Notes: generated by a model from the sequence alone, not told the origin. Counted from the stretch's first letter, positions 10,322 to 59,699 are shown. The stretch: 64,000 nucleotides of DNA from Bacillota bacterium (GCA_023394875.1 JAEXAB010000004.1:135108-199107), one strand, 5' to 3'. Numbers and translations: made by a program.

Positions 10322-10327
10322 GATGGT

Positions 10328-10646
10328 GAGTTAATCTGTAAGCCGAGTTCTGTATTTGATGACCATCTATCTAGGCTTGCCGTTGCCGGCAAGCTCGAGC
10401 GAATTTATAAAGCAAGTCGGGCAAACTATGCGCTTCATATCTTGCATCAAGTGGGGTTTACACAGCCAATTTCGTTGCCGAACTGCTGGTACGCTCTTAC
10501 CGTACCTTTCCATCCTTACAAGCTTGCGCTTGCGGTTTATTTCTGTTGCACTATCCTTAAAGTTGCCTTCAGCGGACGTTATCCGTCACTCTGCCCTGTG
10601 ATGCTCGGACTTTCCTCATCTTGCGATGCGGTCATCTGATTAACTC
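10328..10646 (-). ncRNA. rnpB: RNase P RNA, bacterial type A
   Basis: The reverse complement contains GAGGAAAGTCCGAGC, ACAGGGCAGAGTGACGGATAACGTCCGC, AGTGCAACAGAAATAAACCGC, GGAAAGGTACGGTAAGAGCGTACC, GTAAACCCCAC, CCTAGATAGATGGTCATC and ACAGAACTCGGCTTACAG. The ends pair as P1 (GAGTTAATC / GATTAACTC). Ends are approximate, within a few nt. Confidence 0.93.
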
Positions 10647-10652
10647 AATAAC

Positions 10653-10742: not shown

Positions 10743-13700
10743 ATGCTGATAATAGTTTTAATAATAGTCTGCTTTATGATATTGGCTTCGGCTTATTTTG
10801 CTAAAAAAGACCATCCTCAGGTGGCTTTTCGGCAAATGCGGGAACTGCCTATTGAAGAATTGATAAAATCCATTTCCGATTTGGGCAAAAATTTGCGTCA
10901 GACCGAAAAAGGCAAAGGCGTCAATTCTGTATTTATGTACAACATAATTAAAAAAGCCAACAGAATGATTGCAAAAAAGAACAGTCACAATCAGCCTTTG
11001 CAGGAAAGCGAAAAATGGCTTTATGAAAACTTTTATCTAATTTACCGCTATATTTTCGGTCAGCGCAGCCGTATGTATGACCTTCCGCATGTGGAGAATA
11101 TACCCAGAATAGTTATTTTGGCAAGACAGATAGTTGATAACTCTCTCAATTCTTTAAGTGAGGAGAGAATAAGAATAGTTTTAGAACAATTAAAGATAGT
11201 TTTACCTCTAAATTTTAATGAACTTAGAGAATTTGGCAATGCGATAGGTTATGCGGTTATTGAACAGTTATACATTTTATCTAAGCGCATACTTTATCAG
11301 GAAGAGTGCAAAAATAAGGCAAAAAAATACGGATATAATACCAAACTGATGAAAAGTGATGTGTATACCTATTATTTACTTTGCGGCGGAAATCTTACCG
11401 AAAGTGAAAAAACAAAACTGGAAAAAAGCGGAGTAATTACCAAAAATATATTACTTAGCTATAATAACACCATTTTACTCAACACCGATATGGCAAAAGG
11501 GCTTTTCGGGGCGTTGCGGGATATAAACAACCTTATGCCCATGCATATCGGCATTAAGTTTTTGGGCGCGTATCAGGAGTTATCGATTTTTAAGGACTTC
11601 AAAAGCGTGGATATCGCTACGCAGATTAGTTATTTTAATATTATCGAAAGTATAAGTGTAAATACGAAAATAAGCGAAACGTACGTCGCAAAAAAGCTCA
11701 TTGAATACGCCGAATATAACAACACCGACATAAGTAACGTACTTTATGATAATAAAAGGCAGTTCAAAGAGTATTTAAGAAACAACAAGCTTACAAAAAT
11801 AAGTTCGGTATCAAAAAGATGGTGCGAAAGGCTATATATTTCGGCTATAATCTTGTTAAGTCTTGTTTCTGCTGTAAGTATCAGTCTTTTTGTAAACCTA
11901 GTAATCGGTATATTGTCCTTTTTGCCCCTAATTTATATTTGGGAAAATTTACTTAACTACTTGTTAGAGCATACGAAAAATACCGCCGACACGCCTAAAA
12001 TGAACTATAAAAAAGTGCCGTATGAGCATAACGCTATGGTAGTAATCAGCGAATTTATAACATCATTTACACAATTTACCGAAAGTTTGCGCCATGCCCA
12101 AGTTATTTTGGACGGAAATAACGACAAAAACGTTCAAGTAACTATGCTTATTGACTTAAAAGGGGGTGATGCGCCCGTTGATCCCTTAAACTTTCAAATT
12201 GAAAATTATTTGCGTGAGCAGAATTTTGACAGTCGTTTTAATGTTTTTATCCGAAAAAAAGAGAAAATAGGCAATAAATATATGGGAAAGGAAAGGAAAA
12301 GAGGAGCTATCATGGCGTTAAACAAGCTTTTGATTACCAAAAACAATGCCGACTTTCAGTATATTTATAACGAAAATTTCGTAACTCCACGATATATTGT
12401 CACATTGGACGCCGATAATACCATGCTGCTTGGAGAAATTTTGGATATGGTAAATATGATGGCGCATCCGTATAACGCCAAATACGACCTTTTGGCAACG
12501 CAGAATAAATATAACCTGTATTCTATTAAAACCTGTTATTCTTTGCGTTTTATGAGCGACAGCGGGCTTAGCGGTTATCCTTTCTATACCGGACTTTATA
12601 AAAAGCTTTTTCAAAAAGAAATTTTCTGCGGCAAAGGTATTTACAGGCTCCTAAGTTTTTATAACAAACTTGAAGAAATAATACCTTCAAACAAAGTCCT
12701 TTCACACGATATTTTAGAAGGAAGCATATTGGATACCGGCAGCGGAAGCATAATTTTTGAGGATGCTCCCAGCGGATTTATTTCGGATAGAGAGAGAAGA
12801 AAACGTTGGCAAAGAGGGGATATTCAGCTCCTACCGTTTATAAAAAGCCGATGGAAGACCGACTGTGGAGAAGTTTGCGTAAAGGAAATTTCGCCGATTT
12901 ATAAGTTTATAATGGCGAAAAATATCTTAGTTAACCTAAAAGAGCTGTTTGTACTAGCGGCTATCGTTGTCGGGTTGTTTTTAGGTAATTATTTTTTGTT
13001 GTGGGGCTTGGGGTTGTTTGTAGTCCCTTATATAATAAATCAGATAAAAATTCTCCGTAACGTTACTAGAAAAGTTCGTCCTTGCTATATCGTAAAAAGC
13101 ACTATTTGTAACTTTTTGTTGATGTTGGAAGACTTTTTTATGCTTTCTTATTACGCAATAAGTAACGTTTGTATATTGTTTACTACCCTTAGAAGAATGT
13201 TATTAGGTAAAAAACTTCTGGAGTGGAAAACCTATTACAGCTCACAAAATTCCACGAAATTTGCTTCCTACGCGCAGGAATTTTGCATTCCTTTCCTTGT
13301 TTGTACCGTTATTTTCGGGGTGTTATGGTATTTTAACCCCGTTGGGTTATGGTTGCTTGCATATCTAGGTTTAAGCGTTATTGCTTATATTGAGTTATAT
13401 CTTTTCTCAAACAAAAAGCTTAAAGGAAAGAAAATTAAGGACGAAGACAGAGAGTTTTTAGGTAAAATTGCCGAAAAGACCTACAAATATTTTCAGTATA
13501 TGTCAAACGAAACAGGTTTGATAGCTGACAATCTGCAGATAAAGCCTTATAAGGGCTTAGCGAAGAATACATCTCCGACAAACATCGGTTTTTCTATGCT
13601 ATCCCACGTTTGCGCCTTTTATCTTAACTATATAAATATTGATGAAGCAACGTATGAACTAAATAAAATACTGGATTGTGTGGAAAATTTGCCGAAATGG

Positions 13701-16700
13701 AAAGGAAATCTCTATAATTGGTACAGCCTTAGCAGTCAAAAACAAGTAAACGACTTTGTGTCAAGCATAGACAGCGGCAATTTTTTGACTAGCTTATTGA
13801 TAATAAAGGAGTTTTTCAAAGAAAATAATGATATTGTGGGAGCAAAACGCGCCGAAAATCTGATTGAAGAAACAGATTTGGGCAGTCTGTACGATTCTTC
13901 CAAAAATTTATTCTATATCGGCTTTGACGGCTCCAAATTTGTGGGACATTATGACCTACTTGCTTCCGAAGCAAGAATATTGAGCACCGTTTTTATCGCA
14001 TTGTATCAGAAGAAATACCATTATCACGCTTTGCAAAGGGATTTTTGCGCCTATAACGGAAATACTTTGCTAAGTTGGAGCGGAACGGCATTTGAATACC
14101 TTATGCCCGATTTGTTTTTTGGTTCTCCAATGGGCTCATTACTATATAAATCTTCCAAAAATTCTGTCAAGGCGCAAATGGAAGAGGAATATAACGGTAT
14201 TTGGGGTATGAGTGAAAGCGCGTATTACCGTTTTGATGAAAATATGCTCTATCAATATTATGCTTTCGGTATAAATAGACTGTCCTTGCGGGGAGAAAAG
14301 CAGTACAGAGTTTACGCGCCATATGCTTCTGTATTAGGACTGGAATATTATCCCGAAGATACTATTAAGAACCTGAAACGGTTTTTCAAGCTGGATACTT
14401 TTAACGAATACGGCTTTTATGAAAGCGTAGAGTATAAAGAAAAGCTCCAAATTATAGCTTCCTATATGACTCACCATCAAGGAATGATACTAAGTAGCAT
14501 CACTAATTTTTTATGCGAAAATAAGTTAAAAAAATTATTACTAAATAATACGAAAATTGAAAGCGCACTCAATTTTTATAACGAAATCACTCCTATTGAA
14601 AAGTTTGGGGCAAAAACTCAAGTAAATCAAGTAAAATGTACAAAGAACAATATAGAGTATTACAAAAATTGTGCCAATATAGAACAATACTACCAATCTG
14701 CAGTATTATTTGACTTACAATACAGCGTTAATTTTACCTCTTTAGGCAAGAATTTTTCTAAGTACAGCGACTTGTTTTTAAGCGAATTTTCTCCGTTATA
14801 TGAAGAGCCGACGGGCGGATATTTCTTTGTAAGCGAAGATAAAAACGACTGGTATTCGCCGACTTATTTACCTCTTTGCGGGAAGGAAAGCGATCATACT
14901 TTTTGTTATAGCCATAACGAAATTACTCACGTTAACGTACCAAAAGACGCCACCCAGTCGGTTACTATCGTTGGAAACGCCAATATAGAAGTAAGAAAGC
15001 TTACCGTCAGCAAAAACGCCAGAAAGGCAGCTTTTTATATGGATATTGCTCTTAATAGCTTTGACGGATATTATTCTCACCCGGCTTTTAACGATATGTT
15101 TGTCAAAGCTAAACTATCCGAAGATAAAAAGGTACTGTTTATCACTAAGAGCAATTTAAGTAAGGTTATACCCGATTTTTGTATTGGAGTAAAGGTTTGC
15201 GGCATAAAAAATATACGTTGGGAGTGCAATAAAGCCAACTTTGTGGGCAGAAATCAAAGTTTGCGCCGCCCGAAAATGCTTTTTGATAGTGATAATGATA
15301 GGATATATCCCTCTTTAGGTGACGTTTTGAGCCCTTGTATCGGTTTTATCGGAGAACTGGAAGAGAGGGAAGACAAAAAGGAATGTAAAGTTAGTATTGC
15401 TTACGGCACAAATGAAAAGGAAGTCTACGATGCTTTGATGTATCTACCCGACGATATGTATTCTTATGCCGTTTTATCGGGGCAAAAGTATATTTTCAGC
15501 AACCTTACAATGGAGCTTTTAGGCGAACTTATTTATCTTCCTTATTCCCAAAAGTTCTATAATATGCTTTTAGACAGCGGAAATATGGGAAGATTTAATG
15601 GTTTTTCTCACGGCAGAAAACTGATATCTTATGAATTTTTTGAGGATAATACCGCTAATTTCGAACAGTTTTTGCGGATACTTGCCGATTTGAAAGTACT
15701 GAAAATTAAGGTTAAAGCAATAATCGAAGTTAGGAAAAATTTATCGGATAACTTAAAAAGTTATATCAAAAACGCTTTAGAAAAAAACCTAATTTACGAA
15801 TATTATATCCTTGAAAGCGGAAACGAAGAGCTTGACTGGGCATTTATAAAGCTAAATAATGCCCTTAATTTTTCTCCGACGAAAAAGATATATTCCAAGA
15901 TTTTTGATATAGAAAGGGAGAGCGCTAATATAGTAGCGGGTAAAATTCCCGCGCCTGCGGCGATAATTAGCAGCGGTTTCGGGGGATTTAACTATGACGG
16001 AGTTTATTTTCAGCAGAGTGAAATCCCGACCTATTTACCTTACAGCGCGGTAGTTGCCGACAAAAAAGGCGGTTTTTTATCAACAAACAACGGCGGTGGA
16101 TTCTTCTATTTTGAAAATTCCAGAGAAAACAAGATGACAAGGTTTGATAATAACTACGTTTTCGACCGTCCGTCAGAAGCTTTGTATATAAAAACGACCG
16201 AAGGTTACCACAGAATCAACGGCGGAAGCGGCATTAGTAGGCTAACCACGTTTGATAAAGCCCAAATAAACCATATAACCGATATAAATAAAGTAAACAC
16301 TTCGGTCACTCAATATATGATTTGCGAAGGAAGAATAAAAATAACCGAAATCGATATAAGGAATTATTCGGAAAATATTTTTGAACTGATATATTCTCTA
16401 TATCCGTCCTTGAATTGGGTATACAATCCCGACGTTATTACTTTTTCCCAAAAAAATGACCTTATTACGGTTACGAATACCCAAAATCAGACGTCGTTAT
16501 ATTTGCGCTTTATTGTGGACAATCCCGAAAATATTACGATAATGGGAGAAAGAGAGGTTTTGCCGTATTTTGAATACTATTCAGACAAAAATAACGAAAG
16601 TATATTCATTAGCGCTACGCAGGATATAAATTTGTGCCTGTCTATTAATCGTAATAATATTTATTTTTATCGGGAAAAAGCCTTGTCAGATATAGGATTC

Positions 16701-18146
16701 TTAGATAATATCAGCGTGGCTACCGAAAAGAAGTCGTTTGATTTGTTGGTAAACTTCTTGCCAAAACAGATATATTTTAGCAGAATACTGGGTAAATTCG
16801 GCTTTTATCAAGTTGGAGGGGCTACGGGCTTTCGGGATCAGTTACAGGACAGCTTAGCTTTTCTTCACCACGGAGAGATAACCAGAGAGCATATAATAAA
16901 CGCCGCAATGCACCAATATGAGAGCGGAGACGTAATGCATTGGTGGCATCATCCCAAGTTCGGTTTGCGGACGAAAATTACCGATGACAGGTTGTTTTTA
17001 CCCTATGCTGTGTGCGAATATATTGATTGGAGCGGAGATTTTGAGATTCTTAATTATCCTATACCTTATCTAAGCTCACCCGAACTTACTTTCCATGAAG
17101 AAAGCAGGCTAGAAAACCCCGAATACACCGAATATAAGGACTCTTTATTCCGACACTGTCTAAGAGCAATTCGGATTTCTCTAAAATACGGAGAACATAA
17201 CCTTATTGTTATGGGCAAAGGGGACTGGAACGACGGTATGGACGATATTTGCGGACTTGGTAGGGGAGAAAGCGTATTTAACAGTATGTTCTGCTATGAG
17301 GTGTTGACTAAATTTGCAAAAATCGCTCCCGCAGACTTAAAAGAAGAGATGCTTAACATTGCCGATGGGCTAAATAAAGCAATAAATTCCTATGCCTTTG
17401 AGGGCGACAGATATAAGAGGCTGTACAGTGACGATAACAGATGGTTTGGTAGTACCGAAAGTAAGGCATTAGAACTTGATTTGTTGGTGCAAAGCTATGC
17501 TGTTATTTCCGAAGTGGCTATAGGGAAAAGGGCGGAAACTGTGCTTGATACCGCAAAAAAGCTTATTGACACCGATGCGGGCATAATAAAATTATTAACT
17601 CCACCCCTTACAAAAGAGACCTATTTCGGGTATATTTCCGCCTATCCAAAAGGGGTAAGGGAAAACGGCGGGCAGTATACCCATGCGGCAATGTGGTATC
17701 TTATTGCTTTGACCAAAATTAATCGTCAGGACGAAGCTTTCGAACTGTTTCAGATGCTAAACCCAGTGGAAAAATGCCGCACAGAGGAAGGAAACAAGCG
17801 GTATATGGGAGAACCTTTTGTTTTAAGCGGCGATGTTTACAGCAACATAGACAACTACGGCAGAATGGGTTGGAGTTGGTACACCGGTAGCGCAGGCTGG
17901 GCGTATAAGCTAATAATTGAGAACTTTTTTGGTTTGGTTTTGCGTGATAAAAAGCTTAAAATACAACCGAAACTGCCCAAAAAACTTGATTATTCGGTAA
18001 TAACTTACCGTAACGGTGAGGCTTTATATACCATAGAATACCGCAAGAGCGATAAAAATCTAATAACCCTTGACGGAGAGATTATTGAGGGAGAAATAAC
18101 CCTGGAAACGACCGGAAAGTATAAAATAAATGTTGAAAGCATTTGA
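10743..18146 (+). CDS. cyclic beta-1,2-glucan synthase-like giant protein (GT84 glycosyltransferase, TM segments, alpha-barrel cyclase-like domain, C-terminal GH94 phosphorylase domain)
   Basis: 2467 aa. GT84-type motifs are KERKRGAIMALN, TLDADN (D556) and LSHDILEG...RRKRWQRGDIQLLPF (R688). TM segments follow. The middle domain has LIADNLQ...TSPTNIGF, GNLYNWY, SIDSGNF, DLLASEARI, WSGTAFEYLMP and WGMSESAY. GH94 motifs are GFRDQLQDS, GDVMHWWH, GKGDWNDGMD, ENGGQYTHAAMW and GEPFVLSGDVYS. Confidence 0.85.
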   Translation: MLIIVLIIVCFMILASAYFAKKDHPQVAFRQMRELPIEELIKSISDLGKNLRQTEKGKGVNSVFMYNIIKKANRMIAKKNSHNQPLQESEKWLYENFYLIYRYIFGQRSRMYDLPHVENIPRIVILARQIVDNSLNSLSEERIRIVLEQLKIVLPLNFNELREFGNAIGYAVIEQLYILSKRILYQEECKNKAKKYGYNTKLMKSDVYTYYLLCGGNLTESEKTKLEKSGVITKNILLSYNNTILLNTDMAKGLFGALRDINNLMPMHIGIKFLGAYQELSIFKDFKSVDIATQISYFNIIESISVNTKISETYVAKKLIEYAEYNNTDISNVLYDNKRQFKEYLRNNKLTKISSVSKRWCERLYISAIILLSLVSAVSISLFVNLVIGILSFLPLIYIWENLLNYLLEHTKNTADTPKMNYKKVPYEHNAMVVISEFITSFTQFTESLRHAQVILDGNNDKNVQVTMLIDLKGGDAPVDPLNFQIENYLREQNFDSRFNVFIRKKEKIGNKYMGKERKRGAIMALNKLLITKNNADFQYIYNENFVTPRYIVTLDADNTMLLGEILDMVNMMAHPYNAKYDLLATQNKYNLYSIKTCYSLRFMSDSGLSGYPFYTGLYKKLFQKEIFCGKGIYRLLSFYNKLEEIIPSNKVLSHDILEGSILDTGSGSIIFEDAPSGFISDRERRKRWQRGDIQLLPFIKSRWKTDCGEVCVKEISPIYKFIMAKNILVNLKELFVLAAIVVGLFLGNYFLLWGLGLFVVPYIINQIKILRNVTRKVRPCYIVKSTICNFLLMLEDFFMLSYYAISNVCILFTTLRRMLLGKKLLEWKTYYSSQNSTKFASYAQEFCIPFLVCTVIFGVLWYFNPVGLWLLAYLGLSVIAYIELYLFSNKKLKGKKIKDEDREFLGKIAEKTYKYFQYMSNETGLIADNLQIKPYKGLAKNTSPTNIGFSMLSHVCAFYLNYINIDEATYELNKILDCVENLPKWKGNLYNWYSLSSQKQVNDFVSSIDSGNFLTSLLIIKEFFKENNDIVGAKRAENLIEETDLGSLYDSSKNLFYIGFDGSKFVGHYDLLASEARILSTVFIALYQKKYHYHALQRDFCAYNGNTLLSWSGTAFEYLMPDLFFGSPMGSLLYKSSKNSVKAQMEEEYNGIWGMSESAYYRFDENMLYQYYAFGINRLSLRGEKQYRVYAPYASVLGLEYYPEDTIKNLKRFFKLDTFNEYGFYESVEYKEKLQIIASYMTHHQGMILSSITNFLCENKLKKLLLNNTKIESALNFYNEITPIEKFGAKTQVNQVKCTKNNIEYYKNCANIEQYYQSAVLFDLQYSVNFTSLGKNFSKYSDLFLSEFSPLYEEPTGGYFFVSEDKNDWYSPTYLPLCGKESDHTFCYSHNEITHVNVPKDATQSVTIVGNANIEVRKLTVSKNARKAAFYMDIALNSFDGYYSHPAFNDMFVKAKLSEDKKVLFITKSNLSKVIPDFCIGVKVCGIKNIRWECNKANFVGRNQSLRRPKMLFDSDNDRIYPSLGDVLSPCIGFIGELEEREDKKECKVSIAYGTNEKEVYDALMYLPDDMYSYAVLSGQKYIFSNLTMELLGELIYLPYSQKFYNMLLDSGNMGRFNGFSHGRKLISYEFFEDNTANFEQFLRILADLKVLKIKVKAIIEVRKNLSDNLKSYIKNALEKNLIYEYYILESGNEELDWAFIKLNNALNFSPTKKIYSKIFDIERESANIVAGKIPAPAAIISSGFGGFNYDGVYFQQSEIPTYLPYSAVVADKKGGFLSTNNGGGFFYFENSRENKMTRFDNNYVFDRPSEALYIKTTEGYHRINGGSGISRLTTFDKAQINHITDINKVNTSVTQYMICEGRIKITEIDIRNYSENIFELIYSLYPSLNWVYNPDVITFSQKNDLITVTNTQNQTSLYLRFIVDNPENITIMGEREVLPYFEYYSDKNNESIFISATQDINLCLSINRNNIYFYREKALSDIGFLDNISVATEKKSFDLLVNFLPKQIYFSRILGKFGFYQVGGATGFRDQLQDSLAFLHHGEITREHIINAAMHQYESGDVMHWWHHPKFGLRTKITDDRLFLPYAVCEYIDWSGDFEILNYPIPYLSSPELTFHEESRLENPEYTEYKDSLFRHCLRAIRISLKYGEHNLIVMGKGDWNDGMDDICGLGRGESVFNSMFCYEVLTKFAKIAPADLKEEMLNIADGLNKAINSYAFEGDRYKRLYSDDNRWFGSTESKALELDLLVQSYAVISEVAIGKRAETVLDTAKKLIDTDAGIIKLLTPPLTKETYFGYISAYPKGVRENGGQYTHAAMWYLIALTKINRQDEAFELFQMLNPVEKCRTEEGNKRYMGEPFVLSGDVYSNIDNYGRMGWSWYTGSAGWAYKLIIENFFGLVLRDKKLKIQPKLPKKLDYSVITYRNGEALYTIEYRKSDKNLITLDGEIIEGEITLETTGKYKINVESI

Positions 18147-29659: not shown

Positions 29660-30736
29660 ATGTCAACAATAGGTTACGTAATTTTGGCGATTTTGTGCTT
29701 GATGCTCATGGTCGTAATTCACGAATTGGGACACTATCTGGCAGGAAAAGCTTTGGGATTCAAAATAGTGGAGTTTTCTATAGGCTTTGGACCTGCCATT
29801 TTTAAGCATAAAAACAAAAAAACGGGAGAAATATTCTCCATACGTCCTTTTCCTCTTGGCGGAGCTTGCCAATTTGTAGGAGAAGACGAAGAGAATCCCG
29901 ATGAAAAAGCCTTTAATAACCAAAAACCTTGGAAGAGACTTATCGTACTGTTTTCGGGCGCATTTTTTAACTTTTTATCGGCGATTTTGTTTATTACCTT
30001 GCTTTTTACCTTTTACGGACAATTACTGCCCACCGTTAATTCTTTGAGTGAAGAGTCCTATATCGCCCAAAACAATATTTTACAGGAAGGGGATATTATT
30101 TATAAGGTAAACGGAAGACAGGTTAACATTCTGATGCAGGACGACTTGCAAAACGCTTTTGCCCGCGTGGGTGAGGACGGAGGAACATTTACTATTATAA
30201 GAGAGGGTAAGAAACTTACCGTAAACGTAAAACGCAGTGAAATTTTTGTAAGAGACGCCGAAGGTAATATAACCTATGATACTGACAATAATCCGATAAC
30301 CAGAGAGGCGTTCGGGTTTGTCAGCGGACTAAAACACGTAAGACTTAACTTTTTTACAGCTTTTGCAAGGTCGTTTTCTTTTGGTTTTTATATAGTAATC
30401 AAGATTTTATGGCTCTTAGGGCAATTAGTAACAGGGCAGTTAGCTTTTGCAGAATCGGCAGGCGGACCTATAACTATTATTTCTACCATGAGCGAAGCGG
30501 GTCGTTCGGGCTTCGCATCGTTAGCTTACGTGGTTTGTATAATATCCGCTAATTTAGCGGTTATGAATTTATTACCGCTTCCCGCCCTTGACGGCTCAAG
30601 AATGGTATTTACAATAATAGAATGGATAGCCAAAAAACCGGTTAACAGAAAGGTGGAAAGCGCAATACACTTTACCGGACTAATACTGTTGTTTATGGTG
30701 GCGATATTCGCCGACGTACTGCATTTAATCAGATGA
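29660..30736 (+). CDS. rseP: RIP site-2 metalloprotease RseP/RasP (M50 family, PDZ domain)
   Basis: HELGHY zinc motif in TM1 and NLLPLPALDGS motif near the C-terminus. Start 29660 puts HELGH at its usual distance from the N-terminus; the alternative ATG 29627 (ATGA overlap with dxr) cannot be excluded. Confidence 0.9.
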   Translation: MSTIGYVILAILCLMLMVVIHELGHYLAGKALGFKIVEFSIGFGPAIFKHKNKKTGEIFSIRPFPLGGACQFVGEDEENPDEKAFNNQKPWKRLIVLFSGAFFNFLSAILFITLLFTFYGQLLPTVNSLSEESYIAQNNILQEGDIIYKVNGRQVNILMQDDLQNAFARVGEDGGTFTIIREGKKLTVNVKRSEIFVRDAEGNITYDTDNNPITREAFGFVSGLKHVRLNFFTAFARSFSFGFYIVIKILWLLGQLVTGQLAFAESAGGPITIISTMSEAGRSGFASLAYVVCIISANLAVMNLLPLPALDGSRMVFTIIEWIAKKPVNRKVESAIHFTGLILLFMVAIFADVLHLIR

Positions 30737-31755
30737 GCAAAAAAATCGTATACGTAAAAAACGTTCCCTTAGGAGACGGCAATATCGTTATTCAATCGAT
30801 GACCAATACCTTAACAACGGATATTGACGGTACGGTTCAGCAAATTTTACGCTTAAAAGAGGCGGGAGCGGAACTTGTTAGGGTAAGTATTCCGGACGAA
30901 GAGAGCGCAAAAGCAATTAAACATTTTGTTAATTTGGGTGTGCCAATAATAGGGGATATTCACTTTTCAGAAAAGCCCGCCCTAATAGCTATAGAAAACG
31001 GCATAGCAAAAATTAGGCTAAACCCCGGCAATATGACCAAAGAGGGCATAAAAAATACCGTTAAAGCCTGCATTGAACGTAATATTCCCATAAGAGTTGG
31101 AGTTAATAAAGGTTCTTCGGGCAATCTTAGCCCTAAAGAACTAGCCGATAAATGTATTGACACCGCCAAAATTATAGAAGATTTGGGTTGGGACAAGCTT
31201 GTCCTTGCCGTAAAATCCTCCGACGTAAAAGAAACGGTGGAAGCGTACAGATATCTAAGCTCTATTACCGATTATCCTTTGCACGTAGGGCTTACCGAAG
31301 CAGGCACAATAAATAGCGGTTTTTGTAAGTCAGCAATAGCGATAGGAAGTTTACTTTTAGAAGGCATAGGCGATACCATAAGAGTAAGCCTGGCTACAGA
31401 CCCTATTGAAGAAATTTATGCGGCAAAGAGGATTTTACGCGCCGCGGGAATTGATAAAAAGTTTGTAGAAGTTATTGCTTGCCCTACATGCGCCAGAACC
31501 AATATAGAAGTATCAAAGTTAGCCGAAGAAATAGAAAAATATACCGAAAAAATGACTTTTCCGTTAAAAATTGCTATAATGGGTTGTGTGGTAAACGGAA
31601 TAGGAGAATCAAAAGGCGCCGACTTTGGAGTGGCGGGCGGCAAAGATATTTCGGCAATATTCCGCGATAAAGAAATATTGAAAAAAGTGCCGAATGAAAA
31701 AATTTATGAAGATTTACTGCAAATAATAGAGGAATACAGACTAAAAAATGAATGA
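30733..31755 (+). CDS. ispG: 4-hydroxy-3-methylbut-2-en-1-yl diphosphate synthase
   Basis: VQSMTNT, RVSIPDE and IACPTCAR...GCVVNGIGES Fe-S motifs. Confidence 0.96.
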   Translation: MSKKIVYVKNVPLGDGNIVIQSMTNTLTTDIDGTVQQILRLKEAGAELVRVSIPDEESAKAIKHFVNLGVPIIGDIHFSEKPALIAIENGIAKIRLNPGNMTKEGIKNTVKACIERNIPIRVGVNKGSSGNLSPKELADKCIDTAKIIEDLGWDKLVLAVKSSDVKETVEAYRYLSSITDYPLHVGLTEAGTINSGFCKSAIAIGSLLLEGIGDTIRVSLATDPIEEIYAAKRILRAAGIDKKFVEVIACPTCARTNIEVSKLAEEIEKYTEKMTFPLKIAIMGCVVNGIGESKGADFGVAGGKDISAIFRDKEILKKVPNEKIYEDLLQIIEEYRLKNE

Positions 31756-33274
31756 ACTGCCTTTTATTGAAGAATTAAACAAAAGACTGTTGGAAAACGA
31801 AAGAATTTTTAAGTTTCGCAGCGCAGAAATTACCAAAGGGAAATATTTTTCTTTGGAGCTTATGCTTAATTCTTATACCGCCAACACTTTTTTTACTAAA
31901 GAACTTAAAAATAAGGTAGAGGGAAAAATTAAAGAAATTTTACCAAAAAACTTGAACGTTAACGTAAAATTCCATAAAACATTGACAACCAAAGATTTAA
32001 TTAGAAAGAGCTTTTTAGAATACATATATAAAGAAAAACCCACTTTTTATGAAAATTTTCTCAACGCCGATATGGATATAGAAATAATCGGCAATATGGT
32101 TTACATAAACGTCACGTTGGAAAAATTTATGTGCGATTTTGCCAATAGTTCCAACCTTGGCGCCGATATGTCCGAAGTTCTAAATAAAGAATTTATGGAA
32201 GATTTCGAAATTCACTTTTTAGAAATTCCCAACAAAGAAGTAGCCATAGAAAATAGGGTAAGCAACAAAATCGAGTACTCTTTAAGGTTTATTAACGTAG
32301 AAATTAATGCCTCTTTATGGGGTAGTATACTGCAAAATCCGCGCTATATTGCCGACGTCAAGGACAAAGCGTATTCCGACGTATGTATTTGCGGAGTAAT
32401 AAGCAACGTAAAAGAAAGATACATAGAAAGTATCAAAAAGAACCTGTTTACCTTCCAACTTTACGACACAACGGGCTATATAACCTGCAAAGCCTTTATT
32501 AATACAGCTAGAAAGGATCAACTAAAGTTTGCCCAGTCTATGTTAGACGGTAACACAATGGTAATGCAGGGACAAATAAAATACGATAACTACGACAACT
32601 CTATGTCATTTATTCCTAATAAAGCGGCTTTTTGCACTATTGATTATAAATCCATCGATACTGCGCCAAAATATTTACCCGAACCAGATAATTATATGTA
32701 CATAACCCCGGTAAAATATATGGAAGAAGTACAAATCGACCTGCTTTCCGAAGGTATTCCCAAAGAGTTGTATAATAAAACTTTCGTGGTGTTTGACTTC
32801 GAAACAACAGGAACAGAACCCGAAAAATGCGGTATTACCGATATAGGCGCCGTAAAAATAGTCAACGGAAGAATAACCGAAACTTTTTCTTCGCTGGTAA
32901 ATCCCGAAATGGAAATTCCCGAGGAGGTAATAGCCTTAACGCATATTACCAACGAAATGGTACAAAAAGAGCGTAGGTTTGAAGAGATTATCGGAGATTT
33001 TTATAAGTTTACAAGAGGGGAAAGTGTGATACTGGTAGCACATAATGCTCCTTTTGATATGTCATTTTTACGTAAATATGCCGCTATAAGCAATTATTAT
33101 TTTGATAATTCGGTAATAGACACGTTAATTCTTGCCAGACAAAAAATCCAATTGAAAAAGTATAAGTTGGGTAATTTATGCGAAGCGCTGCAGGTACCCT
33201 TAAACGGGGCACATAGAGCCTTAAACGACGCTATAGCAACGGCTAAAGTTTTTATAAAATTGCATTCAATATAA
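31748..33274 (+). CDS. PolC-like N-terminal domain, OB fold and DEDDh 3'-5' exonuclease; no PHP or polymerase core
   Basis: 508 aa. The exonuclease motifs are intact: FVVFDFETTG (Exo I, ~aa 346), AHNAPFDMSFL (Exo II, ~aa 431), HRALNDAIATAKVF (Exo III, ~aa 489). The preceding region (aa ~205-295, LFTFQLYDTTGYITCKAFINTARKD...VMQGQIKYDNYDNSMSFI) resembles the PolC OB domain. The gene occupies the polC position between ispG and rimP-nusA. It has a clean stop, followed by a promoter and a terminator. Confidence 0.75.
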   Translation: MNELPFIEELNKRLLENERIFKFRSAEITKGKYFSLELMLNSYTANTFFTKELKNKVEGKIKEILPKNLNVNVKFHKTLTTKDLIRKSFLEYIYKEKPTFYENFLNADMDIEIIGNMVYINVTLEKFMCDFANSSNLGADMSEVLNKEFMEDFEIHFLEIPNKEVAIENRVSNKIEYSLRFINVEINASLWGSILQNPRYIADVKDKAYSDVCICGVISNVKERYIESIKKNLFTFQLYDTTGYITCKAFINTARKDQLKFAQSMLDGNTMVMQGQIKYDNYDNSMSFIPNKAAFCTIDYKSIDTAPKYLPEPDNYMYITPVKYMEEVQIDLLSEGIPKELYNKTFVVFDFETTGTEPEKCGITDIGAVKIVNGRITETFSSLVNPEMEIPEEVIALTHITNEMVQKERRFEEIIGDFYKFTRGESVILVAHNAPFDMSFLRKYAAISNYYFDNSVIDTLILARQKIQLKKYKLGNLCEALQVPLNGAHRALNDAIATAKVFIKLHSI

Positions 33275-33280
33275 AAATTG

Positions 33281-33309
33281 TTGCATTATTTTTCCAAATA
33301 TGGTAATAT
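33281..33309 (+). promoter_or_regulatory. sigma-A-type promoter with extended -10 (TTGCAT-17-TGgTAATAT) for the rimP-nusA-infB operon
   Basis: TTGCAT at 33281-33286, 17-nt spacer ending in TGG, TAATAT at 33304-33309. Confidence 0.55.
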
Positions 33310-33335
33310 ATAATTACTTAATAGATAAACATCTT

Positions 33336-33370
33336 GAGAGTGGTCGTAAAAAACGGCCACTCTCGTTTTT
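33336..33370 (+). terminator. strong intrinsic terminator hairpin located in the rimP-nusA leader (candidate attenuator)
   Basis: GAGAGTGGTCG / CGGCCACTCTC 11-bp stem (one G-U pair), loop TAAAAAA, followed by GTTTTT. It lies downstream of the predicted promoter and 1 nt before the SD AGGGAGG of rimP. Confidence 0.75.
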
Positions 33371-33382
33371 AGGGAGGACAAG

Positions 33383-33841
33383 TTGGATAGTATTTGCAAG
33401 ACGGTTTATCAATTAACCAATGATATTATTACTAATTTGGGCTATGAAATCGTCGACATAGAATATAAAAAGATGTACGGAGAAAACAATCTTATCATTT
33501 TTATATTCAAAAAAGGCGGAGTGGACTTAGACGATTGCGAAAAAGTATGTCAAGCTATAGACATCATTCTTGACGAAAGCGATTTTACAAAGGGAGAAGC
33601 TTATAACCTCAATATTTCTTCCCCCGGACTTGACCGTCTCATTGTTACTAATGACGACTACCGCAGAAGTTTAGATACCGAAATCGAAGTTATTTTTGAC
33701 AAACCGCAAGGCAAAATGAAAAAAACGAACGGTATTTTGATAAAATATGACAAAGACACGCTGACTTTGGAAAAAGGCGGCAAAGAAAACGTATATAACA
33801 AGGCAGACTTAAAAACAGTAAGACCTTATATAAAATTTTAA
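33383..33841 (+). CDS. rimP: ribosome maturation factor RimP
   Basis: TTG start with SD AGGGAGG; LGYEIVDIEYKK... and NISSPGLDRLI motifs; precedes nusA. Confidence 0.9.
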   Translation: MDSICKTVYQLTNDIITNLGYEIVDIEYKKMYGENNLIIFIFKKGGVDLDDCEKVCQAIDIILDESDFTKGEAYNLNISSPGLDRLIVTNDDYRRSLDTEIEVIFDKPQGKMKKTNGILIKYDKDTLTLEKGGKENVYNKADLKTVRPYIKF

Positions 33842-55753: not shown

Positions 55754-57082
55754 ATGGAAAAACAATATTATATATATACATACGGCTGTCAAATGAACGT
55801 TCACGAGTCCGAAAAACTCGCGGGAATGCTTCAAAATATAGGCTATACTTCCAGTGCGGAAGTGAAAAACGCCGATATAATCTTATTTAATACCTGTTGT
55901 ATCCGCGATACCGCCGAGAAAAAAATTCTTGGCAATATCGGCGATATAAAACAATTAAAGAAGAAAAATCCCGACCTTATTGTAGCAATTGTGGGCTGTA
56001 TGACCCAACAGGAAGGTATGGCGGAGAATCTTCATACCAAATTCCCGTACATTAACATAGTTTTAGGCACCGACAATCTTAATAAACTGCCGGAACTGGT
56101 TGAAAATATTGCAAATAAGAGAACAAAATTCGATTATAAAATCAATTCCGACCCATTAAGGGATATTAACGAGGATATTCCCGTATTCAGAACCAGCGGA
56201 ACCAACGCTTGGGTTAATATCATGTATGGTTGTAATAATTTCTGCACTTATTGTATTGTTCCTTACGTTAGGGGCAGAGAACGGAGTAGAAAACCTTCCT
56301 TAATTATTGACGACGTAAAGAGATTAATTGATAACGGTTATAAAGAAATAACCCTTTTAGGGCAAAACGTTGACTCTTATAAGTACGTAACCGAAACTAA
56401 AGAGTACAATTTTGTAGCTATTTTGGAAGAAATTGCCAAAATAGATGCCAAATTCCGCCTTAGATTTATGACCTCACATCCTAAGGACTTCCATAGCGGT
56501 GTTATTGATATAATAAAATCGTGTGACAATATCTGTAATAATATCCACTTGCCAGTACAAGCCGGCAGCGATCGGATATTAAAATTAATGAACAGGCATT
56601 ATACCCGCGAAAGATACTTAGATATCGTGCAGGAAATTTACGAAAAGCTGCCCACCGTAGGCTTAACTTCGGATATTATGGTAGGTTTCCCGACCGAAAC
56701 GGACGAAGACTTCATAGACACCCTTGATTTAGTAAAAAAAGTGCGTTTCAGTAACGCTTTTACCTTTGTTTATTCGCCGAGAAAAGGCACCGCCGCCGCA
56801 AAAATGGAGCAGGTACCGTCTGCCATTAAAAAGGAAAGAATAACCAAGCTTGTCGCCTTGCAAAATTCCATTTCTGCGGAAATCAGCCAGACTTATATTG
56901 GCAAAACCGAAGAAATTTTGATAGAAGACGTCAACAAAAAGAAAGAAAATTACGTTTGCGGAAGAACGGAAAGCGGCAGACTGGTTAACTTCGATGGCAA
57001 AAATCATAACTTGGGAGAATTCGTTAAAGTAAAAATTACTTCGACAAAATCATCTTCTTTATGGGGGGAAATTGATGGATAA
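55754..57082 (+). CDS. miaB: tRNA-2-methylthio-N6-dimethylallyladenosine synthase
   Basis: YIYTYGCQMN UPF0004 N-terminus, radical-SAM CNNFCTYCIVP, and a C-terminal TRAM domain. Confidence 0.97.
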   Translation: MEKQYYIYTYGCQMNVHESEKLAGMLQNIGYTSSAEVKNADIILFNTCCIRDTAEKKILGNIGDIKQLKKKNPDLIVAIVGCMTQQEGMAENLHTKFPYINIVLGTDNLNKLPELVENIANKRTKFDYKINSDPLRDINEDIPVFRTSGTNAWVNIMYGCNNFCTYCIVPYVRGRERSRKPSLIIDDVKRLIDNGYKEITLLGQNVDSYKYVTETKEYNFVAILEEIAKIDAKFRLRFMTSHPKDFHSGVIDIIKSCDNICNNIHLPVQAGSDRILKLMNRHYTRERYLDIVQEIYEKLPTVGLTSDIMVGFPTETDEDFIDTLDLVKKVRFSNAFTFVYSPRKGTAAAKMEQVPSAIKKERITKLVALQNSISAEISQTYIGKTEEILIEDVNKKKENYVCGRTESGRLVNFDGKNHNLGEFVKVKITSTKSSSLWGEIDG

Positions 57083-59699
57083 GCTTTCACCGATGATGAA
57101 ACATTATCTTACCTTAAAAGAAAAATATCCGGATACCATTATTCTTTATAGGTTGGGCGATTTTTATGAAATGTTCTTTGAAGATGCTATTAAGGCGAGC
57201 AAAATTTTGGAATTGACATTGACCGGCCGTGATTGCGGACTGGAAGAGAGAGCGCCCATGTGCGGCGTTCCTTACCACGCGGTAGATAATTATATCTCCC
57301 GATTGATTTCTTCGGGCAATAAAGTAGGTATTTGCGAGCAGTTAAGCAACCCCGGCGTCCAAAAAGGTATGGTAAAAAGGGATATCGTAAGGATAATAAC
57401 GCCCGGGACAAATACAAATGAAGACATGCTTGACAGCAAAGTAAACCATTATCTTTGTAGCGTAGTAAAGGGAAAGTTCGGCTATGCCAGCGCTATTCTT
57501 GATATAACAACGGGCGAAACATACGCGAAAAGCTTCTCTGGAAGCGATATATTCCAGCTAGAAGACTTTCTTCTGACTAATCTTCCCAGCGAAATAATAG
57601 CCCCGAAAGAGGTTTGCGACGAGTCAAAGTCATTAACATCGGTAATAACCGAAAAACTGGTAAAATTTTCTCCTTATTATGATTATTCCTTTGATTTTGA
57701 TAACGCCAAAGATACCGTATTAAAACAAATGCAGGCTTATAGCTTAGAGGCTTTGGGCTTGCAGAGAGAAGAAAACATAGTAAAAGCCTTGGGCGGACTG
57801 CTTGATTACGTAAAAAACACCCAGAAAAAGAGTTTGAGTCACATAAATTGCGTAAAAGTTCTGTCCAACGGACAAACCATGGAACTTGACTACAACACGG
57901 TTAAAAATCTGGAGCTTGTAGAAACACAAAGCGACAACAAAAAAATCGGCAGTTTGCTGTGGGTGTTGGACAAGACTAAGACAGGTATGGGGGCAAGAAA
58001 GCTCCGTAATTGGGTACTTAATCCATTACAAGACGTTGTCGATATAGAAAACAGACAAACGGCGGTAGGCGAGTTTGCGAAAAATCTGCAAATCCGCAGT
58101 CTTTTGTCCAACGTTTTAGGAAAAGTTAAAGATATAGAACGTTTGGTTACCAAAATTTCTTACGGAACCATAATGCCGAGAGATTGTATTAGTCTAGCTT
58201 CCTCAATTGCGCAATTTCCTTTGATAAAAGAGCTTATTACCAAGACAAAATCGCCACTTTTGAAGACTCTGGACGAAAGTTTTGGCACTTTTACAGAAAT
58301 CAGCAATAAAATTAACGCGACAATTGCCGAAGAGCCGCCCGCGACCCTAAAAGACGGTGGTTTTATAAGAAATAACTGCAATAAAGAGCTTGACGAAACA
58401 AGAAAAATGCAGAAAGACAGTAAAGCTGTACTTGCTAAATTTGAAAGCGACCAAAAACTCCTTACCGGCGTAAGCACACTAAAAGTAGGCTATAACAGAA
58501 TTTTCGGCTATTATATAGAAATATCAAAGAGCAAAAAGCCGGAAACGTTACCGCCAGATTATATAAGAAAGCAAACCATAGCCAACGGCGAAAGATACGT
58601 CAATGATGAATTAATGCGTTTAGAAAAAGAGATTTTGGGCGCAGCGGACAAAATACTTTACTTAGAAAACCAAATTTATGAGGAACTTAAAGAATATTTA
58701 GCTAATTTTGTTGCTCCTCTGCAACGTAATGCCGAAATTATCGCTAATTACGACTGTTTGTTGTCCCTTGCAGAAACTGCGGTTAAGAACAATTATACCA
58801 AACCGAAGTTCGTTAAAGATAACGTTATTAATATAACCGACGGCAGGCACCCTGTTGTGGATATGCTTATTGGCGCCAATGAGTTTGTGCCGAATGACAC
58901 TTTTATTAACAAAGATAACCTTACCATGATAATAACAGGCCCGAATATGGCAGGTAAGAGTACATATATTAGACAAGTTGCCATAATAACCCTTATGGCG
59001 CATATCGGTAGTTTTGTGCCTGCAGCTAAGGCAGAACTTTGTCTTGTGGACAAGATTTTTACAAGAGTTGGCGCAAGCGATAATCTTATCCGCGGTCAAA
59101 GTACTTTTATGGTGGAAATGCTGGAAGTTGCCAATATCCTAAACAACGCCACCTCAAAAAGTCTGCTTATCCTTGACGAAATAGGGAGAGGAACTTCCAC
59201 ATTGGACGGACTTAGCATAGCATGGGCGATTGTAGAGCATATTACCCTAAATCTAGCCGCCAAAACGCTGTTTGCAACGCACTATCACGAACTAAGCGAA
59301 CTGGAACAACTACTAAAAGGAATCAGAAATTACCGCATTTTAGTGCAGGAAAAGAGCGACGGTATAGCGTTTTTATATAAAATCGCCCGCGGCGGAGCCA
59401 ATAAGAGTTTCGGTATAGAAGTTGCGGAAATTGCCGGGGTTAAAAAGTCGGTTATTGCCAGAGCCAAAGATATTATGGCATCGTTATCTGACAATCATGA
59501 GCTAAGCGGCGGGCTGAAAGACAAATTATCGGCAAATAATAATTCAACCGAAGTTATCGCCGACCAGTTTTCTATTTTTAATGAGGATCCACGTTTTGTG
59601 GAGATTTCCAAAATACTAAAAGACACCGATATTAACAGATGCACGCCTATTGAGGCCTTGACTATACTTTCCGATTTGAAGAAAATCATCAATAAATAG
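57075..59699 (+). CDS. mutS: DNA mismatch repair protein MutS
   Basis: TPMMKHYLTLKEKYPD...LYRLGDFYEMFFEDA mismatch-binding N-terminus, GPNMAGKST Walker A, LILDEIGRGTST. I prefer ATG 57075 (SD GGGGGG) over TTG 57072. Confidence 0.97.
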   Translation: MDKLSPMMKHYLTLKEKYPDTIILYRLGDFYEMFFEDAIKASKILELTLTGRDCGLEERAPMCGVPYHAVDNYISRLISSGNKVGICEQLSNPGVQKGMVKRDIVRIITPGTNTNEDMLDSKVNHYLCSVVKGKFGYASAILDITTGETYAKSFSGSDIFQLEDFLLTNLPSEIIAPKEVCDESKSLTSVITEKLVKFSPYYDYSFDFDNAKDTVLKQMQAYSLEALGLQREENIVKALGGLLDYVKNTQKKSLSHINCVKVLSNGQTMELDYNTVKNLELVETQSDNKKIGSLLWVLDKTKTGMGARKLRNWVLNPLQDVVDIENRQTAVGEFAKNLQIRSLLSNVLGKVKDIERLVTKISYGTIMPRDCISLASSIAQFPLIKELITKTKSPLLKTLDESFGTFTEISNKINATIAEEPPATLKDGGFIRNNCNKELDETRKMQKDSKAVLAKFESDQKLLTGVSTLKVGYNRIFGYYIEISKSKKPETLPPDYIRKQTIANGERYVNDELMRLEKEILGAADKILYLENQIYEELKEYLANFVAPLQRNAEIIANYDCLLSLAETAVKNNYTKPKFVKDNVINITDGRHPVVDMLIGANEFVPNDTFINKDNLTMIITGPNMAGKSTYIRQVAIITLMAHIGSFVPAAKAELCLVDKIFTRVGASDNLIRGQSTFMVEMLEVANILNNATSKSLLILDEIGRGTSTLDGLSIAWAIVEHITLNLAAKTLFATHYHELSELEQLLKGIRNYRILVQEKSDGIAFLYKIARGGANKSFGIEVAEIAGVKKSVIARAKDIMASLSDNHELSGGLKDKLSANNNSTEVIADQFSIFNEDPRFVEISKILKDTDINRCTPIEALTILSDLKKIINK

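Follow-up and report, generated by a model that had tools for sequence, protein, structure and literature searches.

Which gene takes the place of polC, at the end of a block uppS-cdsA-dxr-rseP-ispG and ahead of rimP-nusA-infB, when that gene is far too short to encode the polymerase? We addressed this question in a stretch of 64,000 nucleotides from a Bacillota bacterium (GCA_023394875.1, JAEXAB010000004.1:135108-199107), here called the window, where the position between ispG and rimP is held by a gene of 508 codons that we refer to as X (31748-33274, + strand). PolC is regarded as the hallmark, essential replicase of low-GC Firmicutes, and a new class of antibiotics, comprising ibezapolstat and its relatives, is directed at it. 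An earlier note, made by reading the sequence by itself (the sequence-only reading), had proposed that X carries only the N-terminal, oligonucleotide/oligosaccharide-binding (OB) and proofreading-exonuclease modules of PolC. The analysis described below shows that X belongs to a large family and is not a one-off: a conserved, polymerase-less PolC derivative is present in many gut Clostridia. It is very probable that this family as a whole represents PolC-derived DEDDh exonucleases installed in the polC slot, and we lean, with less assurance, towards X acting as a stand-alone proofreader at the ancestral polC locus.

The exonuclease of X

X is a complete open reading frame (ORF) of 508 amino acids plus stop codon, as read from the ORF list and its translation, in which two N-terminal subdomains (NI and NII), an OB fold, a 47-residue linker and a DEDDh exonuclease follow one another. 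The exonuclease, a 3'-5' enzyme of the PolC type, spans residues 345-505 (32780-33262, + strand; Pfam RNase_T, E 3e-37), and the protein ends three residues beyond it. The three motifs that the sequence-only reading had described as intact can all be read in the sequence: ExoI, DFETTG (residues 350-355, 32795-32812, with D350 and E352); ExoII, HNAPFD (residues 432-437, 33041-33058, with D437 and the likewise invariant N433); and ExoIII, HRALNDA (residues 489-495, 33212-33232, with H489 and D494), which marks the DEDDh subtype. All 167 distinct members of the family, without exception, carry D350, E352, D437, H489 and D494. Pfam PF00929 matched X with 129 bits against a gathering cut-off of 24, which places the domain in the DEDDh superfamily.

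The exonuclease was then compared with those of both PolC and DnaQ, the two relatives between which the sequence-only reading had wished to decide. The two best NCBIfam models were PolC equivalogs, with NF001688 first, and in a profile search of the Protein Data Bank (PDB) with the X family the PolC exonuclease of T. maritima (2p1j) and the PolC of E. faecium (9qpc) scored 200 and 168 bits, versus approximately 101 bits for E. coli epsilon and 51 bits for RNase T. By these scores, the exonuclease of X is of PolC ancestry, and not of dnaQ ancestry.

The OB fold and the N-terminal pair

The middle of X, which had appeared by eye to resemble the PolC OB domain, does so by profile comparison. The PolC-type OB fold, including the pre-OB glycine motif, covers residues 188-297 (32309-32638, + strand), as located by hhalign, PDB profile search and Pfam. 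In hhalign, residues 188-295 of X aligned with residues 200-307 of A. woodii PolC (Prob 98%, E 7e-14), the glycine motif being part of the alignment, and in the PDB profile search the PolC of G. kaustophilus (3f2b, E 5e-8) came ahead of the DnaE OB folds; E. faecium PolC (9qpc) was recovered as well. Pfam PF01336 gave an E value of 2e-5 in X itself, below the gathering score, and was matched in 28 of 30 members of the family.

A model of X was built with AlphaFold2 (AF2) on a 30-sequence alignment and reached a mean predicted local distance difference test (pLDDT) value of 87; since its predicted template modelling score was only 0.52, the model indicates flexibly linked domains. When the full model was compared with the PDB in Foldseek, the best match was PolC 9qpc (E 2e-17, 380 aligned columns).

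NI (residues 1-80, 31748-31987, + strand) has the order alpha-beta-beta-alpha-alpha-beta, with a pLDDT of 90.7 in a model of the N-terminal domain (NTD) alone. NII (residues 81-165, 31988-32242, + strand) shows an NI-like topology in the model and appears in hhalign as a diverged repeat of NI (Prob 89%, E 2e-6); a disordered spacer (residues 163-177) leads on to the OB region. Residues 18-77 of X matched the N-terminal subdomain of one PolC clade (hhalign, Prob 95%, E 2e-8), represented by an alignment of 116 sequences from 'Christensenella sp.' metagenome-assembled genomes (MAGs), and this was the sole PolC alignment to yield a significant match to NI. An hhalign comparison of the X NTD with a mixed alignment of four PolC NTDs was not significant (E 0.14), a search of NCBIfam with the N-terminal 336 residues of X gave no match, and Foldseek with the NTD model returned just weak matches, to other tandem small alpha/beta modules. 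The N-terminal region of PolC is unresolved in every solved PolC structure (PMC12592400). As quoted in PMC12926913, it is a pair of related domains that distantly resemble domain V of tau (Timinskas and Venclovas 2011), a description that the N-terminal pair predicted for X fits.

The PolC clade of 'Christensenella sp.' and Clostridia MAGs (L075, L080, L088, L091 and P0307-P0426) is itself short, at 1320-1360 residues, and carries one N-terminal subdomain before the OB fold in place of the usual pair. A PolC fragment of 826 residues from an AT-rich organism (P0080) carries two tandem DEDDh exonucleases inserted in its PHP domain.

What X lacks and what the linker has gained

Neither a PHP domain nor a pol III alpha core follows the exonuclease, as had been noticed from the sequence, and Pfam found no match to either in X. 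In the PolCs recovered here, PHP motif I lies approximately 82-90 residues before ExoI, and approximately 850 residues follow the exonuclease. Since both PHP and core are missing, X must have lost the N-terminal PHP segment as well as everything past the exonuclease; the precise domain loss that the sequence-only reading had named as one of two routes, beside an independent fusion, agrees with a clean, conserved architecture from which exactly these two parts are absent.

In place of the N-terminal PHP segment, X has a linker of 47 residues (298-344, 32639-32779, + strand), delimited by BLASTP and by motif mapping against PolC, and modelled with lower confidence than the rest (pLDDT 73-75). 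Its conservation was counted over the 167 distinct members. Y316 is kept in 162 and P321 in 163, as part of a near-invariant Y-x-x-V-x-P-x-x-Y (residues 316-324) that has no identifiable PolC counterpart. Just downstream, Q329 is kept in 151 (approximately 90% of members), position 331 is N, D, S or G in 150, position 332 is L, M, F or I in 159, and position 333 is F in 132 and L in 30 (F or L in 97%). The resulting pattern, Q-x-[NDS]-[LMF]-F, is that of a candidate beta-clamp-binding motif, represented in the window by QIDLL (residues 329-333, 32732-32746, + strand), and it is the single occurrence of a Q-type clamp-like motif in this X, at the conserved linker site.

At the C-terminus of the PolCs recovered here stands QLSLF or QISLF, the same pattern as that of the X linker. 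MutS of the window (57072-59699) carries QFSIF at residues 832-836 of its C-terminal tail, where the clamp-binding motif of Firmicute MutS is known to lie, and offers an in-genome reference for the style of the motif. Predicted clamp motifs of C-family polymerases include QGNLF, QLGLF, QMSLL and QIELF (Timinskas 2013, Table S1, PMC3919608). The linker motif is a likely candidate for binding to the beta clamp. Loss of the polymerase would have removed the C-terminal clamp motif of PolC, and the conservation of a substitute within the linker would point to a need for X to contact the clamp unaided.

X occupies the slot of polC

We screened 80 loci from a scan of a genome collection and seven assembly loci by tblastn, using the N-terminal PHP/palm regions of DnaE1 and PolC as probes over +-10 kb. 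Seventy loci are of the X type, reading [uppS-cdsA-(dxr)-rseP-(ispG)]-X-rimP-nusA-infB, with ispG upstream in most, and this survey of relatives, which the sequence-only reading had proposed, found X intact in the slot in all 70. None of the 70 had PHP or Pol III sequence within the range searched, and none had a tandem duplicate or polymerase remnant at X. Fourteen loci are of the PolC type, with polC in the slot right after ispG. No locus among those screened had both polC and X in the slot.

Three further PolCs, 59-79% identical to that of 'Christensenella sp. UBA7703' (L075), also lie directly after ispG, one of them on a 2.85-Mb contig, and wherever the upstream context of a sampled polC was visible (approximately 11 cases), ispG immediately preceded it. 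The place of X had been recognized from the sequence as the syntenic polC slot, and the 14 PolC-type loci together with the three additional PolCs bear this out: X behaves, by gene order, as the positional orthologue of polC.

Some loci depart from the common arrangement. Eleven X loci (L017, L019, L020, L025, L033, L035, L038, L049, L054, L055 and L060) are without dxr and ispG and read uppS-cdsA-rseP-X, which suggests that genes of the methylerythritol phosphate pathway were lost or relocated in a sub-clade. In four others (L005, L010, L011 and L062), 4-8 kb of unrelated genes lie between X and rimP, including, in L005, a 1212-residue protein with Flg_new repeats, alr, lspA and rluD; by these insertions, the X-rimP junction is not inviolable, while the ispG-X junction is. 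At three polC loci (L088, L091 and that of P0405), polC is followed by the gene for RNase Y and not by rimP.

Size and integrity of the X family

Six contigs from ENA and Logan assemblies, which were made independently, carry an identical X protein within an identical 20-kb neighbourhood; two of the six exceed 1 Mb. Homology searches returned at least 120 clusters, nearly all of 498-541 residues, whose identity of 28-81% extends from end to end of the protein. When a profile built from residues 1-165 (the NTD profile) was searched against 1.84 billion representatives, it matched approximately 460 clusters at 50% identity; the best 150 of these 460 were proteins of about 500-577 residues or fragments, with the exception of one 936-residue protein with 14 short matches, and no PolC-length polymerase was among these 150. 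At the 70 loci, which come from assemblies and GTDB species genomes, X is an intact ORF, mostly of 492-549 residues.

The X-bearing genomes are all MAGs, at least 64 of them at species level, mainly from animal and human gut. They are labelled Clostridia, Christensenellaceae, Christensenella sp., Catabacter or Candidatus Scatosoma, and some labels are clearly unreliable; MAGs labelled Spirochaetales, Thermoanaerobacterales and Lachnospiraceae (L035, L017 and L019) share the X locus, and these labels are probably wrong. A neighbour-joining tree of a single gene, ispG, did not resolve whether the X-bearing genomes are monophyletic. Database names of X relatives are generic, with one record in IMG called 'DNA polymerase III alpha, Gram-positive type', and in the literature that could be searched we found no paper on the X family or on loss of PolC in Christensenellales-like lineages.

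A proposed stand-alone proofreader at the polC locus

On balance, we favour the following account of X, taken with its whole mechanism. The lineage of X would have kept the N-terminal pair, the OB fold and the DEDDh exonuclease of PolC, and would have lost the PHP domain around the exonuclease together with the entire polymerase core. The linker motif would dock X on the beta sliding clamp, while the N-terminal pair may dock it on the replisome, through tau or through the polymerase; for the corresponding pair of PolC, a contact with the clamp loader has been put forward. The OB fold would hold single-stranded DNA, and the DEDDh site would remove misincorporated 3' nucleotides in trans, on behalf of a C-family polymerase without a DEDDh domain of its own. 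The partner would most likely be DnaE1; a PolC without exonuclease, encoded at another locus, is the alternative. That X binds the clamp, docks on the replisome, acts on DNA and not on RNA, and works with the partner just named are the predicted elements of this scheme.

Several points weigh against this account. X does not possess the C-terminal tail by which E. coli epsilon binds its polymerase, and QIDLL is a weaker variant of the family motif; binding to clamp and tau is a prediction. NII had no significant match among PolC sequences, and none of 30 X members matched the Pfam families of PolC NI and NII; the PolC-like N-terminus claimed in the sequence-only reading is borne out in part, through the match of NI to one PolC clade. 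According to PMC12926913, the PHP proofreader of DnaE1 is usually intact in Clostridia, and a second proofreader is thus not obviously needed. Some database records label relatives of X 3'-5' exoribonucleases. Finally, the operon context of X was inherited from polC and is uninformative on function.

Was PolC lost or kept?

No C-family polymerase was found among the large ORFs of the window or in the 10 kb past each of its ends. We regard it as an even bet that a broad clade of uncultured, mainly gut Clostridia lost PolC altogether and replicates with DnaE1 alone, its polC gene having been turned, where it stood, into a DEDDh proofreader of its own that would bind the clamp and serve DnaE1 in trans. 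Parsimony slightly favours the loss of PolC. On the same side are the very stable position of polC in the genomes sampled, the absence of any duplicate or remnant at the X loci, and the self-sufficiency for clamp access that the linker motif would give X. Timinskas 2013 (PMC3919608) reports that DnaE1 is the only such polymerase in some Clostridia, and that the DnaE1 of Clostridia shows every feature of a self-sufficient replicase.

A serious competitor, to which we give somewhat less than an even chance, is that the X-bearing genomes keep a PolC elsewhere, normal or exonuclease-less. X would in that case have arisen by duplication and complementary loss as a module that assists or complements this PolC, and would be no sign of a replisome free of PolC. 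PolC is near-universal in Firmicutes and essential where tested. In addition, 6% of PolCs are without the exonuclease insertion, all of them in Clostridia and Negativicutes (Timinskas 2013, PMC3919608); such enzymes would profit from a proofreader in trans. Gene-strand bias and purine excess are associated with PolC (PMC11040001; PMC4070872), and the window has both an extreme strand bias, with 48 of its 49 ORFs of at least 150 residues on the + strand, and a purine excess on its gene-rich strand.

Against a PolC kept elsewhere stand the unvarying place of polC after ispG in the approximately 11 genomes where its context is visible, and the 70 X-type loci with no PHP/Pol3 sequence within 10 kb and no tandem duplicate. 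X also has a clamp motif of its own, and no PolC-length protein is among the best 150 NTD matches, two findings that argue against a recent paralogue. Base composition is not diagnostic of the replicase: sites that are 4-fold degenerate have an AT skew of -0.20 in X-type loci and a less negative one, of -0.05, in PolC-type loci, but three high-GC PolC-type loci (L080, which belongs to the Christensenella-type PolC clade, L086 and L087) resemble the X type in this respect, and the purine excess of the whole strand is equal in the two types.

A repair or RNA-processing exonuclease, or an artefact?

It is unlikely, in our estimate, that X is an exonuclease of PolC descent that no longer works at the replication fork and has turned to repair or to RNA processing, where it could trim 3' ends in recombination and repair or mature stable RNA in the manner of RNase T or oligoribonuclease. 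RNase T, ExoX and the DinG exonuclease are DEDDh enzymes that all match the domain, the exoribonuclease labels mentioned above point the same way, and X adjoins genes of ribosome maturation (rimP, rbfA, truB and that of an nrnA-like DHH protein). This neighbourhood is, however, the inherited neighbourhood of polC, and the exonuclease scores against PolC about twice what it scores against epsilon or RNase T. Moreover, the retained OB fold, the probably retained N-terminal pair and the newly gained clamp-like linker fit a role in association with the DNA clamp, which would include clamp-bound repair as a possibility.

PolC-like modules in the polC slot without a polymerase could also be the work of a faulty assembly, a frameshift or a decaying polC pseudogene, a reading that we put at next to nothing and that is excluded, as far as assemblies can show, by the same protein and locus on six contigs of independent assemblies, by a length steady at 498-541 residues across 28-81% identity, by a family of 460 clusters, by catalytic residues that are invariant in the 167 members compared, and by a gap of 108 nucleotides between the X stop codon and rimP, into which the 2.7 kb that encode PHP and polymerase would not fit. 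The agreement of the assemblies and the family-wide length likewise uphold the earlier view that X is no truncation by a single frameshift.

Significance

If a stand-alone proofreader serving DnaE1 is indeed what replaced PolC, a Firmicute lineage would have arrived independently, and starting from PolC, at an arrangement of 'alpha plus epsilon' like that of E. coli. Were PolC truly absent, these bacteria would offer a natural experiment in which proofreading was uncoupled from the polymerase and tethered again through the clamp, and the X-bearing commensals would be insensitive by nature to inhibitors of PolC. Where surveys of polC rely on labels such as that of IMG, X could be counted as polC. 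X is, besides, a compact and separately encoded version of the PolC N-terminal region, which is poorly understood and without a solved structure, and makes the function of this region directly testable.

Junctions of X and other features of the window

Upstream of X, Pfam identified uppS-cdsA-dxr-rseP-ispG and, downstream, rimP-nusA-ylxR-L7Ae-infB. The adjoining ispG (GcpE; 30733-31755, + strand; Pfam GcpE, E 4e-118) ends within X: the ATG of X and the ispG stop codon lie in an overlap of eight nucleotides (ATGAATGA, 31748-31755, + strand), visible in both coordinates and sequence, which suggests translational coupling, as had been proposed from the sequence. Junctions of ispG and X are likewise tight in four related loci (L003, L004, L006 and L007).

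At the other end, the ORF stops cleanly at 33274, as first read, and the 108-nucleotide spacer leads to the TTG start of rimP (33383-33841, + strand; Pfam RimP_N and RimP_C), the first gene of the rimP-nusA-infB block. The strong hairpin reported there was recovered in a terminator scan as 13 pairs followed by a T-run (33335-33370, + strand; RNA fold z = -3.8), ending 13 nucleotides before the rimP start codon, and an equivalent hairpin and T-run, ending 10-30 nucleotides before the rimP start, is present in the X-rimP spacer of 38 of 57 related loci (spacers L001-L082). It could serve either as the terminator of the upstream operon or as an attenuator of the rimP-nusA-infB operon; in B. subtilis, NusA is known to autoregulate by such attenuation. 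The promoter-like element that had been placed after the stop codon of X was not recovered: a promoter consensus scan called nothing on the + strand in 33275-33335, and shuffled sequence contains as many promoter-like sites as the region does.

Elsewhere in the window, the RNA of RNase P, class A (10323-10647, - strand, 269 bits), is the sole Rfam match at gathering level and one of very few features on the - strand. The window also has a gene for a 2467-residue protein (10743-18146, + strand) with GH94 catalytic, GH94 supersandwich and glucoamylase-like domains, which resembles, by these domains, a cyclic beta-1,2-glucan synthase or phosphorylase.

Comparison with known systems

X shares with PolC its slot, after ispG and before rimP-nusA-infB, and the succession from predicted N-terminal subdomains through an OB fold to a DEDDh exonuclease; this exonuclease, the OB fold and the first N-terminal subdomain are each closest to their PolC counterparts, and the clamp-type motif follows the pattern of the C-terminal QLSLF of PolC. 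In contrast to PolC, X has no PHP domain (no match to PF02811), for which reason its exonuclease is not an insertion, and it has no palm, thumb or fingers (PF07733 and PF17657) and no helix-hairpin-helix (HhH) region, and hence cannot polymerise. It is 508 residues long versus approximately 1320-1520 for PolC, and its clamp-like motif is internal, in the linker between OB fold and exonuclease, whereas that of PolC is C-terminal. It scores 169.8 bits against NF001688, where the cut-off is 873, and 158.2 bits against TIGR01405, where it is 1043. By domain content and curated score, X is thus not a PolC, since it has neither polymerase core nor PHP domain and scores below the cut-offs.

The exonuclease-less PolCs of Negativicutes and some Clostridia (NTD, OB, PHP, Pol3 and HhH; Timinskas 2013) come from the same broad group and form the complementary variant, with the DEDDh domain missing: they keep PHP and polymerase and lose the exonuclease, and X does the reverse. 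The PolX-like proteins without a polymerase region (PMC12926913) are comparable in that the nuclease part was kept as a separate protein; they differ in belonging to polymerase family X and not C, in having a PHP and not a DEDDh fold, and in a role in repair and not in replication.

Like X in the scheme proposed here, the epsilon subunit of E. coli (DnaQ) is a DEDDh proofreader encoded apart from the DnaE-type polymerase that it serves in trans, and X passes the epsilon-family domain model TIGR00573 (111.5 bits versus a cut-off of 71.5). Epsilon is also reported to have a clamp-binding motif next to its exonuclease domain (Jergic 2013; Toste Rego 2013). X differs from it in lacking the C-terminal tail that binds alpha (PHP), in its approximately 340 additional N-terminal residues, which comprise the subdomain pair and the OB fold, in scoring below the cut-offs of the proteobacterial dnaQ equivalog models (91.6 versus 222.7 bits for TIGR01406 and 95.1 versus 196 bits for NF004316), and in the PolC, not dnaQ, ancestry of its exonuclease. 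By this analogy, X would be a functional counterpart of E. coli epsilon, built of PolC parts.

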